Below are positions 4,813-38,587 of a stretch of DNA of 64,000 bases, one piece after another. The notes below the pieces were generated by a model. That model was not told the DNA's origin, did no database searches, and saw nothing but the letters and a program-made list of their open reading frames with translations. The translations under genes were made by a program, and so were the position numbers. Position 1 is the first letter of the stretch. Every line of letters begins with the position of its first letter. Source of the DNA: a virus (Duplodnaviria; Caudoviricetes); IMG/VR virus record IMGVR_UViG_3300033463_000010, positions 128,001 through 192,000 of that record; one strand, given 5' to 3'.

Positions 4813-5286
4813 CTAAAAATCCCCCTCGGCAACTTGCAGGCACTTGAAGCCCAATTCCCTCCATTTATTAACCATAGAATTTCTGTCTTCCAGGATAAAC
4901 GCCACCTTGTAATCGGGGTTGCGTTGCAGATATTCGTTAAGCAGTTCGGGCTTAACTTCGGTGTCGTGACGCTTGTCACCGTCGTCACGGTAAAGGATAG
5001 GCAGACCCATAACACCGCCACGGTTATAGCGGAAATTCGGCATATTGTCACGGAGCCATTGACGGGTAGCGTCATTGGTGCTTCTGCGACGACCCGTGCA
5101 GAAAACGATACCGTAAGAGTCCGAGAGTGCTTCTACAAGCCTTACCATTTCGGTAATGGGCTTGTCCTGCCCGCAGGCTGCGTAGAAGCCGTCCCAATCT
5201 TTCGGCTCTTTGGAAAGATACTTCGCTGCACGTTCCGAAGCGTCGGTAATCGTGCCGTCAATGTCAACTACTACAATACTTCTCAT
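4813..5286 (-). CDS. HAD-family phosphatase (T4 polynucleotide kinase 3'-phosphatase-like domain)
   Basis: DIDGT motif I, TGR motif II, K and EDR motifs, C-terminal QVAEGDF. Confidence 0.85.
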   Translation of the reverse strand: MRSIVVVDIDGTITDASERAAKYLSKEPKDWDGFYAACGQDKPITEMVRLVEALSDSYGIVFCTGRRRSTNDATRQWLRDNMPNFRYNRGGVMGLPILYRDDGDKRHDTEVKPELLNEYLQRNPDYKVAFILEDRNSMVNKWRELGFKCLQVAEGDF

Positions 5287-9841: not shown

Positions 9842-9935
9842 ATCGTGTTATCCTTGTCGGGAGTTTATAATAAATATATAACAATTTACTATAATCTGCC
9901 AACAGGTAATCCACAGAATGCTGTCAAAAATGTAG

Positions 9936-10022
9936 CGGAGCGGGCAGGATTCGGACCTGCGGTGAGCAAAACCCACGGCTCTTTAGCAAAGAACTGCCAT
10001 AGACCAGCTAGGCGACCACTCC
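9936..10022 (-). tRNA. tRNA-Ser(GCT)
   Basis: GGAGTGG/CCGCTCC acceptor, loop TT-GCT-AA, long variable arm, T-loop TCCGAAT; no encoded CCA. Confidence 0.9.
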
Positions 10023-10033
10023 AAAAATGTTAG

Positions 10034-10116
10034 TGCCGATTGCAGGATTCGGACCTACGAAGACTTGCGTCGGGTGATTTACAGTCACCTGCCTTTGACC
10101 GCTAGGCTAAATCGGC
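10034..10116 (-). tRNA. tRNA-Tyr(GTA)
   Basis: GCCGATT/AATCGGC acceptor, GGTGA-CT-GTA-AA-TCACC, long variable arm, T-loop TCCGAAT. Confidence 0.92.
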
Positions 10117-10124
10117 ATTGTTAG

Positions 10125-10198
10125 CTCTACCGCCACGATTCGGACGTGGACTCTCAACGCTTAACAGGCGTGGGTTTTACCAATTAAACTACGGCAGA
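10125..10198 (-). tRNA. tRNA-Asn(GTT)
   Basis: TCTGCCG/CGGTAGA acceptor, G73, loop CT-GTT-AA, T-loop TCCGAAT. Confidence 0.88.
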
Positions 10199-10204
10199 AT
10201 AATT

Positions 10205-10279
10205 CGGGGAAAGTGTGGGAGTCGGACCCACCTCACACATACCGTGATATGTGCAGTTCACCACGACGCTAAAGTTCCC
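10205..10279 (-). pseudogene. Degenerate tRNA-like element, anticodon not assignable
   Basis: Intact T-arm GTGGG-TCCGACT-CCCAC, two mismatches in the acceptor stem, 7-bp anticodon-like stem with a 6-nt loop TCACGG. Confidence 0.55.
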
Positions 10280-10292
10280 AAAAATGTTTTCG

Positions 10293-10401
10293 TGGACACC
10301 CTCCGATTTGAACGGAGCGTTCCGTAATACTTTCGCAGCGTCCTATCCTTTCTTTTGGCGTTTTGCGATACCTTACGGCAGGTCCCGTAGCCACGGTGCC
10401 C
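10293..10401 (-). ncRNA. 109-nt tmRNA-like (tRNA-like domain) RNA
   Basis: GGGCACC/GGTGTCC-A acceptor with G3:U70 and A73, no D-stem, long interrupted helix in place of the anticodon arm, T-arm CTCCG-TTCAAAT-CGGAG. Confidence 0.6.
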
Positions 10402-10412
10402 AAAATGTTTCG

Positions 10413-10485
10413 TGGAGCGTATCGGACTTGAACCGATGACCTCCCGCTTGCAGGGCGGGCGTTCTACCAACTGAACTAACGTCCC
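10413..10485 (-). tRNA. tRNA-Ala(TGC)
   Basis: G3:U70, A73, CCCGC-CC-TGC-AA-GCGGG, T-loop TTCAAGT. Confidence 0.88.
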
Positions 10486-10489
10486 ATAG

Positions 10490-10562
10490 TAGTTCCATAG
10501 GGATTCGGACCCTAGTCGCTAGGTTGAAAACCTAGTGTCCTAGACCACTAGACGATGGAACC
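10490..10562 (-). tRNA. tRNA-Glu(TTC)
   Basis: GGTTCCA/TGGAACT acceptor, CTAGG-TT-TTC-AA-CCTAG, T-loop TCCGAAT. Confidence 0.92.
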
Positions 10563-10574
10563 ATAATTTGTTCG

Positions 10575-10649
10575 TGCGACGGGGTGGATTTGAACCACCG
10601 ACACGAGGATTTTCAGTCCCCTGCTCTACCAGGCTGAAGCTACCGCCAC
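10575..10649 (-). tRNA. tRNA-Phe(GAA)
   Basis: GTGGCGG/CCGTCGC acceptor, GGGGA-CT-GAA-AA-TCCTC, T-loop TTCAAAT. Confidence 0.92.
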
Positions 10650-10658
10650 ATAAAGGCT

Positions 10659-10694
10659 AAACAAAAAACCACGTTGCTTGTCGCAGCGTGGCTT
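10659..10694 (-). terminator. Intrinsic terminator (attenuator) between the promoter and the first tRNA
   Basis: GCCACGCTGC-GACAA-GCAACGTGGT followed by TTTTTGTTT. Confidence 0.85.
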
Positions 10695-10725
10695 CCTGTT
10701 TAACCCTTGAAAAACACTTGGAATA

Positions 10726-10812
10726 TCACCACGACTGCGAATACGCAAAATAGGCTTCGGCAAAACTAGCCTCGGCTTCAAAATAAAAGTTATTTGCGTA
10801 ATTCTTGTTCAT
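10726..10812 (-). CDS. Attenuator leader peptide MNKNYANNFYFEAEASFAEAYFAYSQSW (28 aa)
   Basis: AGGA RBS at 10821-10824; residues 4-25 are only N/Y/A/F/E/S; the last codons form the antiterminator strand. Confidence 0.85.
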   Translation of the reverse strand: MNKNYANNFYFEAEASFAEAYFAYSQSW

Positions 10813-10835
10813 AGTGATTTTCCTATACGTCGCCT

Positions 10836-10864
10836 AATATAGATTATTCGGGAACCCGTGTCAA
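10836..10864 (-). promoter_or_regulatory. sigma70-type promoter of the leader-tRNA operon
   Basis: TTGACA 10859-10864, 17-nt spacer, TATATT 10836-10841; a different dyad (GAACCC..GGGTTC) flanks the -35. Confidence 0.85.
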
Positions 10865-14710: not shown

Positions 14711-14793
14711 TTTGGAATCCTCGGTTGAAGTGGTTGTCTTTCCTTTACGCCCTAAATATAACAAAATACCTAGTTGTTGTCAACAGGTATTTT
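14711..14793 (-). promoter_or_regulatory. Class I promoter/operator cassette
   Basis: TTGACA 14778-14783, TATATT 14755-14760, AAAATACCT..AGGTATTTT dyad. Confidence 0.88.
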
Positions 14794-38461: not shown

Positions 38462-38502
38462 AAGGGTTCCTTTTGTTTAAGGGTTAATCGGGTTAAAAAT
38501 AA

Positions 38503-38575
38503 TGGACGTGACAGGGCTTGAACCTGTAACCGTCGGGTTATGAGTCCGATGCACTAACCATTGTGCTACACGTCC
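38503..38575 (-). tRNA. tRNA with CAT anticodon (Ile2 or elongator Met)
   Basis: GGACGTG/CACGTCC-A acceptor, loop CT-CAT-AA, T-loop TTCAAGC; stand-alone, outside the attenuated cluster. Confidence 0.88.
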
Positions 38576-38587
38576 ATTTCAGCCTAG

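Follow-up and report, generated by a model that had tools for sequence, protein, structure and literature searches.

A putative ribosome-mediated attenuator in front of a rumen phage tRNA array, with a leader peptide matched to the encoded tRNAs

The tRNA array of a 213-kb rumen phage is most likely gated by a ribosome-mediated transcription attenuator, in which translation of a short leader samples the decoding of the codons that the array's own tRNAs read. The window, the whole 64,000-nucleotide stretch analysed here, covers positions 128,001-192,000 of a virus record that is 213,231 bases long and carries a terminal repeat (genome G000). The phage has genes for a T4-like major head protein, a UvsX-like recombinase and a DNA polymerase, and seven tRNA genes in total. 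The parts of the device, their mutually exclusive pairings, the coding constraint on the leader and the codon-tRNA match in two phage clades are demonstrated at the level of sequence (Table 1). An attenuator logic had been put forward in the original prediction; all of its coordinates and counts, those of the promoter, RBS, ORF, terminator and tRNAs, were reproduced on recomputation, and the interpretation is supported by the leader composition, by three helices and by the comparison of 20 homologous regions.

Table 1. Features of the attenuator locus and the tRNA array (positions of the window unless a locus is named).
Feature	Position	Strand	Remarks
Sigma70-type promoter, predicted	10836..10864	-	-35 TTGACA, 17 nt, -10 TATATT; 11/12 match; kept in homologues
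RBS AGGA (10824-10821) and start codon; strand 1 of protector helix	10809..10824	-	AGGAAA and CTATG invariant in 20 regions
Leader ORF, 28 codons	10726..10812	-	last codons double as pairing strand
Segment 2	10720..10740	-	alternatives: protector with RBS/ATG strand (10734-10720) or antiterminator with terminator 5' arm (10740-10729)
Invariant 9-nt motif TTCCAAGTG	10715..10723	-	directly after protector helix; candidate pause element
Intrinsic terminator, segments 3:4	10659..10691	-	core 10691-10669, U tract 10668-10659; stem extendable to 10708/10652
tRNA-Phe(GAA)	10574..10649	-	ARAGORN, Rfam
tRNA-Glu(UUC)	10489..10562	-	ARAGORN, Rfam
tRNA-Ala(UGC)	10412..10485	-	ARAGORN, Rfam
113-nt tRNA-like RNA	10289..10401	-	Ala-type acceptor (G3.U70), T arm; long irregular hairpin replaces anticodon arm
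Degenerate tRNA-like element	10205..10279	-	8-nt anticodon loop; His-type G-1/C73 end by inspection; accessory
tRNA-Asn(GUU)	10124..10198	-	ARAGORN, Rfam
tRNA-Tyr(GUA)	10033..10116	-	ARAGORN, Rfam
tRNA-Ser(GCU)	9935..10022	-	ARAGORN, Rfam
Homologous clade B leaders	L078:1353-1436, L115:5487-5570, L099:612-695	+	

The predicted folds of the leader RNA follow the layout of a classical attenuator (1:2, 2:3 and 3:4), in which a protector, an antiterminator and an intrinsic terminator are mutually exclusive. In the fold of the leader region (-69.9 kcal/mol, z = -8.16) the protector is combined with the terminator (1:2 plus 3:4); in the protector, the RBS and the ATG are paired with 10734-10720, and an inner helix is formed between codons 3-7 and 22-25. 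The terminator region (10700-10655) has a fold z of -5.6. When segment 4 is left out of the fold, the antiterminator 2:3 forms, and its pairing of 10740-10729 with 10691-10681 over 11 bp with one bulge is as originally described. The exclusivity of terminator and antiterminator in the earlier RNA layout therefore stands, whereas the third helix, between the RBS/ATG and the leader end, had been missed. The 9-nt motif that follows the protector is identical in 20 of the 20 regions, having itself been part of the pattern by which those regions were collected. None of the Rfam cis-regulatory families, T-box included, reached threshold at the locus.

Within 11 kb, three sites agree with the -35/-10 pattern at the 11/12 level; the promoter at 10864-10836 is among them, and its flanks are unlike those of the roughly 30 repeated promoters of the phage. 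These repeated promoters constitute a cassette in which TTGAC, a GGTAAT/GGTATT spacer, TATATT and then an ACCGAGG leader motif follow in this order, and which is found at about 30 sites genome-wide, in both genome arms, ahead of many small-gene clusters (in the window at 14783, 9325, 7294 and 4514). Between the terminator and the tRNA-Ser no promoter-like site was found on the same strand, and the tRNAs would thus depend on read-through of the terminator.

The composition of the leader peptide closely mirrors the array. Asn (4), Tyr (4), Ala (6), Phe (4), Glu (3) and Ser (3) account for 24 of the 27 residues, a figure on which our recount and the original one agree, with a binomial P of 4.6e-9 against the phage proteome, where the same six amino acids make up 33.8%. 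At the codon level, the six anticodons can read 22 of the 27 codons that the leader contains (P = 3.7e-8). Only one of the 38,760 possible six-amino-acid sets covers 24 leader residues, and this best set is the tRNA set of the array. The leader tops the 1,208 small ORFs of the genome for composition with no other close, and its 22-residue run of the six amino acids is the longest across six frames (the next being 12). Up to about codon 22, the control codons comprise four for Asn, five for Ala, four for Phe, three each for Tyr and Glu and one for Ser. The absence of Ile from the leader, previously used as an argument, carries no weight, since Ile is found at codon 2 or 4 in homologues.

Homologous loci were gathered through tRNA, pattern and neighbour-gene searches and amount to 20 distinct regions, 17 of clade A (the window included) and the others of clade B; the relatives were sampled from cattle, sheep and buffalo gut. 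The leader ORF has 27 or 28 codons in all 20 regions. Within clade A, the sole indel in the ORF is 3 nt long and corresponds to a whole Phe codon, while indels of any length occur outside the ORF. Codons 4-23 of clade A display 8 synonymous versus 5 non-synonymous changes against an expected synonymous share of 0.18-0.26 (P 0.0005-0.007), a constraint to which RNA structure may add, and three of the five non-synonymous changes exchange Tyr and Phe, both members of the set. At the protein level the last four codons are free to vary, yet they track the terminator arm in four versions; likewise, the RBS strand tracks the post-stop strand, with a matched insertion in L009, L041, L044 and L037.

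As the terminator arms align poorly, which weakens RNAalifold on the MAFFT alignment (6 compensatory pairs only), the duplexes were tested per sequence. Between groups that we defined and that are related, so that the comparisons are not independent trials, the 2:3 duplex averages -16.7 kcal/mol for cognate strands and -12.1 kcal/mol for strands taken from different groups, the cognate pair being surpassed by 15 of the 314 cross pairs, and the corresponding means are -15.1 versus -11.6 kcal/mol for 1:2 and -16.4 versus -10.8 kcal/mol for 3:4. The compensatory pairing changes anticipated for related phages are accordingly present in the 20 homologous regions, where the helices change in concert.

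Losses of tRNA genes from the array are not followed by the leader. tRNA-Ala and tRNA-Asn are lost in L009/L046 and in L052, and tRNA-Asn and tRNA-Tyr in L037-L040; in each case the cognate leader codons are retained. In the complete record of L009 neither an Ala nor an Asn tRNA was found elsewhere, by a search that also missed the Ser tRNA of L009. Leaders unchanged after recent losses suggest that the leader reflects the array of the ancestor and is slow to follow such losses. Protein genes are found inside some of the arrays (L009:6004-6801, with a weak HNH match; L025:2843-3640, zinc-finger-like; and in L052 and L056), and the gene insertion coincides with the loss of tRNA-Ala and tRNA-Asn in L009 and L052.

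In clade B, where the array has changed, the leader has changed as well. The clade consists of G001 (capsid 73% identical), L115/L116 and L099, which share the same layout and gene neighbourhood, with a leader fold z of -4.3. The G001 array encodes Phe, Lys(UUU), Ala, Asn and Gly(GCC) tRNAs, that of L115 Phe, Lys, Ala, a chimeric Asn, Ser(GCU) and Gly, and that of L099 Phe, Ala, Arg(ACG), Asn, Thr(CGU) and Ser(GCU), the last cut by the contig end. Glu and Tyr, with 6-7 occurrences in codons 4-23 of clade A, have none in clade B; Lys, Arg, Thr and Gly go from none in clade A to 6 in clade B; and Phe, Ala, Asn and Ser account for 12-14 in both, a contrast that represents a single independent event. 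The new clade B codons CGT, ACG, GGC, GGT, AAA and AGT fit the encoded anticodons, and Val and His are present in the control zone with no matching tRNA. The set of each locus' own array ranks within the top 10 of 15,504 for G001, the top 4 of 38,760 for L099 and the top 15 of 38,760 for L115, and an eight-amino-acid set pooled from the three loci is first of 125,970 for G001 and L115. At a distance of 38 kb from its array, G001 additionally encodes a Glu(CUC) tRNA and a Tyr-like tRNA; neither is represented in the control zone of the leader, which argues that the leader follows the gated set and not that of the genome. The covariation of leader composition with tRNA content that the original prediction called for is thus evident between the clades, but not in the three close lineages in which two tRNAs were lost and the leader stayed the same.

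The device can only sense slow decoding, and by established knowledge an uncharged tRNA and a missing one are indistinguishable to it. It is conceivable, though unlikely, that the attenuator is a sensor of general slowdown or amino-acid starvation, the codon match being a historical optimisation and single-tRNA specificity minor. The leaders retained after tRNA loss would agree with such a sensor, as would the dilution of each of six inputs and the lower sensitivity of mixed codons (Elf and Ehrenberg, PMC1183508); however, the exclusion of 13 amino acids from a run of 22 codons would be superfluous in a general sensor, which does not account for the turnover between the clades at codon level, which involves all Glu and Tyr codons and in which AGT, CGT, ACG and GGY are used as the anticodons read.

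The position of the switch was modelled with the ribosome represented by a blocked stretch that we assumed to extend from -15 to +13 relative to the A-site codon. At final equilibrium with one ribosome, the window antiterminates only with stalls at codons 1-7, since pairing of the RBS strand can still complete the protector with the ribosome enclosed, and several homologues favour the terminator almost wherever the ribosome is placed. In the fold before the decision, when segment 4 has yet to emerge, and with the upstream RNA blocked, the antiterminator has a probability of at least 0.8 through codon 20 and below 0.1 by codon 24-25 in 20 of 20 regions. A second ribosome placed on the start codon gives a near-identical result, and a queued ribosome would probably help the switching. 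With one ribosome before the decision, the drop is kept near codon 21-23, with mid-leader dips in some homologues; with no ribosome, the pre-decision values range from 0.00 to 0.94 across regions and are not consistently off. In the model, the boundary falls near the point where the matched-codon zone ends, and all six inputs precede it, although they are unequal, with one control codon for Ser and five for Ala. The six-input OR gate proposed earlier holds in the model to about codon 22, but it requires a blocked upstream strand and a kinetic decision, as the terminator often wins at equilibrium. Attenuation is described as a race (PMC1183508).

The equilibrium preference of many homologues for the terminator would also be expected of a fixed leaky terminator that closes the upstream operon and provides a constant tRNA dose, leader translation merely tuning basal read-through or its timing, and the stretch from the stop of the upstream gene (10885) to the leader hairpin gave no call of a terminator-like site; nevertheless, this reading leaves unexplained the composition match, its turnover with the array and the coordinated change of segments 2 and 3, and appears distinctly improbable. 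Least probable of all is a peptide active in itself, either as a small protein or as a nascent-chain arrest peptide sensing a ligand or antibiotic, for while the leader is conserved in clade A with a synonymous excess and has a number of its Ala, Asn, Phe and Ser positions in common with clade B, acidic and aromatic residues are exchanged wholesale for basic and small ones between the clades exactly as the tRNA content, and the C-terminal residues vary with the hairpin and not as a motif.

In the attenuator model, RNA polymerase would start at the leader promoter or read in from the upstream genes, and a ribosome would load on the leader. Quick decoding of the Asn, Tyr, Ala, Phe, Glu and AGU-Ser codons would bring the ribosome to codon 23 or beyond, where it covers segment 2; segment 3 would then pair with segment 4 and transcription would stop near 10660. 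Any slow control codon would instead hold the ribosome, behind which another would wait on the RBS, at a position that leaves segment 2 free, and the 2:3 helix would form before segment 4 exits the polymerase, allowing the tRNAs to be transcribed. As the products of the array decode the leader, the loop would feed back on itself and be self-limiting. Such a scheme presumes translation of the leader in vivo, coupling and pausing, and the queueing of ribosomes. The mixture of codons would seem better suited to sensing the severe loss of any one tRNA than to graded starvation.

The array further contains two tRNA-like RNAs beside the tRNAs called by ARAGORN and Rfam. The 113-nt RNA had been considered tmRNA-like, and its Ala-type acceptor with G3.U70 and its T arm agree with this, whereas it does not match the Rfam tmRNA family RF00023 at E <= 1. 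Its loop contains a short frame, of 7 codons in the window and of 3 codons in L026, and neither the conserved tag frame nor the pseudoknots expected of a tmRNA were found. Judged by these features, it resembles the tRNA-like domain of tmRNA without the tag body. It is an accessory present only in some arrays (the window, L049, L094-L096, L026 and L028), with a compensatory change of C7:G66 to U:A in L026/L028; another relative, L054, has a full tmRNA instead, located 2.5 kb upstream of its leader. The degenerate tRNA-like element has homologues only in clade B (L089:5627-5686 and L115:7276-7335), where it is split by an IS605-type element, and its presence in the window alone among clade A loci suggests an exchange between the clades. 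The clade B tRNA with anticodon UUU (L089:4065-4139; L115:5714-5788) has, by inspection, C33 and Arg-like A20 and G73; this unusual body makes its assignment above as the Lys tRNA tentative, and it is possibly a nuclease-evading variant.

Stand-alone tRNAs are located outside the attenuated array (L119:512-660; L117:413-497; L118:432-515; window 38502-38576), namely Glu(CUC) and the Tyr-like one in G001, Leu(CAA) in two clade A genomes and a CAU tRNA in most. Genes of tRNA-repair type lie near the arrays. In clade A this is a PNKP HAD phosphatase domain (window 4813-5286, minus strand, 4.6 kb downstream of the array), and in clade B an RtcB ligase directly after the array (L089:6301-7503); no RtcB was detected by tblastn in the genome of the window. 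A short ORF before rtcB in clade B was considered as a second leader and rejected, as L115 has a full 110-aa gene there and the other rtcB loci have no such ORF.

A scan of 185,579 genomes with the leader pattern returned one real match and two chance matches inside protein genes (dnaK-like and HTH). The real match, L056 (JAFYKO010000134.1), is a leader with six tRNAs on a phage-type contig binned in a Clostridia MAG, which is probably phage DNA inside the Clostridia bin and no pointer to the host; as it is the only one, the scan provided no host-chromosome source of the device. Cluster names and the Atlas yielded no host clue, and one sub-threshold Fib_succ_major match hints at Fibrobacter. 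The exact terminator sequence had no match among the viral contigs searched, and matches in cultured phages were limited to single tRNAs. One metatranscriptome contig ends at 10663 and two span the terminator, with the flanking genes also covered; strand, ends and level are not readable from assembled contigs, and these were not counted as evidence. In G000 the sites CCGG, GATC, GGCC, CGCG, TCGA and GCGC are nearly absent, with 1-4 copies each per 213 kb (<1% of expectation), and GTAC, with 21 copies, is avoided likewise; the T loops of several tRNAs read TCCGA instead of TTCGA.

Ribosome-mediated transcription attenuation is known from, among others, pheST. The attenuators of trp, his, leu, thr, pheA and ilvBN, and the multivalent ones of ilvGMEDA and thr, have been described in amino-acid operons (PMC1183508). 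The present locus resembles the attenuators of amino-acid operons in its short ORF rich in control codons, in its three exclusive helices and in the overlap of the leader end with the switch strand, and differs from them in its phage location, in the gating of tRNA genes, in having six specificities as opposed to one to three, and in a product that decodes the sensor. All described cases that we found gate genes for amino-acid biosynthesis or synthetases; since the genes gated here are tRNAs, the device would work like the known attenuators and yet be a member of no named one. T-box riboswitches, which bind uncharged tRNA directly and function without a leader peptide, share the principle of antitermination by tRNA status, whereas the leader here has a peptide and no Rfam T-box match. 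No published tRNA array, operon or set of phage tRNA genes under attenuation or leader-peptide control was found in a search of mainly openly accessible papers. The trn operon of Anabaena is repressed by TrcR, a protein repressor acting at the promoter (PMC10272220); by our proposal, both are accessory tRNA arrays silent until translation stress, but the repressor provides no codon specificity. In a word search, attenuation was not mentioned in PMC10272220, PMC11555353 or PMC10264068.

The trigger for which the attenuator was selected is presumably the loss or shortage of these tRNAs during infection, which appears likelier than amino-acid starvation because extra tRNA would be no cure for the latter. 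Phage tRNAs offset retron Eco7 and PrrC, with the rescue depending on a strong promoter (PMC11555353), they rescue infection from PARIS (PMC11464382), and an anticodon-loop hypothesis has been proposed for them (PMC10264068); as with these phage tRNAs and the tRNA-cleaving defences they face, the likely purpose of the array is to replace tRNAs lost during infection. It is plausible, if still tentative, that the leader is a counter-defence sensor, by which specific destruction of host tRNAs, through anticodon nucleases or infection-wide tRNA decay, would elicit a matched and self-limiting replacement set. The tRNA-repair-type genes nearby, the PNKP HAD phosphatase and, in clade B, RtcB, would fit a purpose related to tRNA loss.

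Why phages carry tRNAs, and which ones, has been open for more than 50 years (PMC10264068). An attenuator tuned to the encoded tRNAs would imply that they are needed conditionally, when decoding fails, and not as a constant supplement to codon usage, and it would extend attenuation from enzymes to tRNAs themselves. The question of the purpose of phage tRNAs would thereby become testable with a 200-nt reporter, and the leader would represent a natural sensor that reports tRNA loss in vivo in multiplexed form and may be of use in screening defence nucleases. Should the counter-defence function prove true, the leader sequences would constitute a readable record of the tRNAs that are attacked or limiting in each host.
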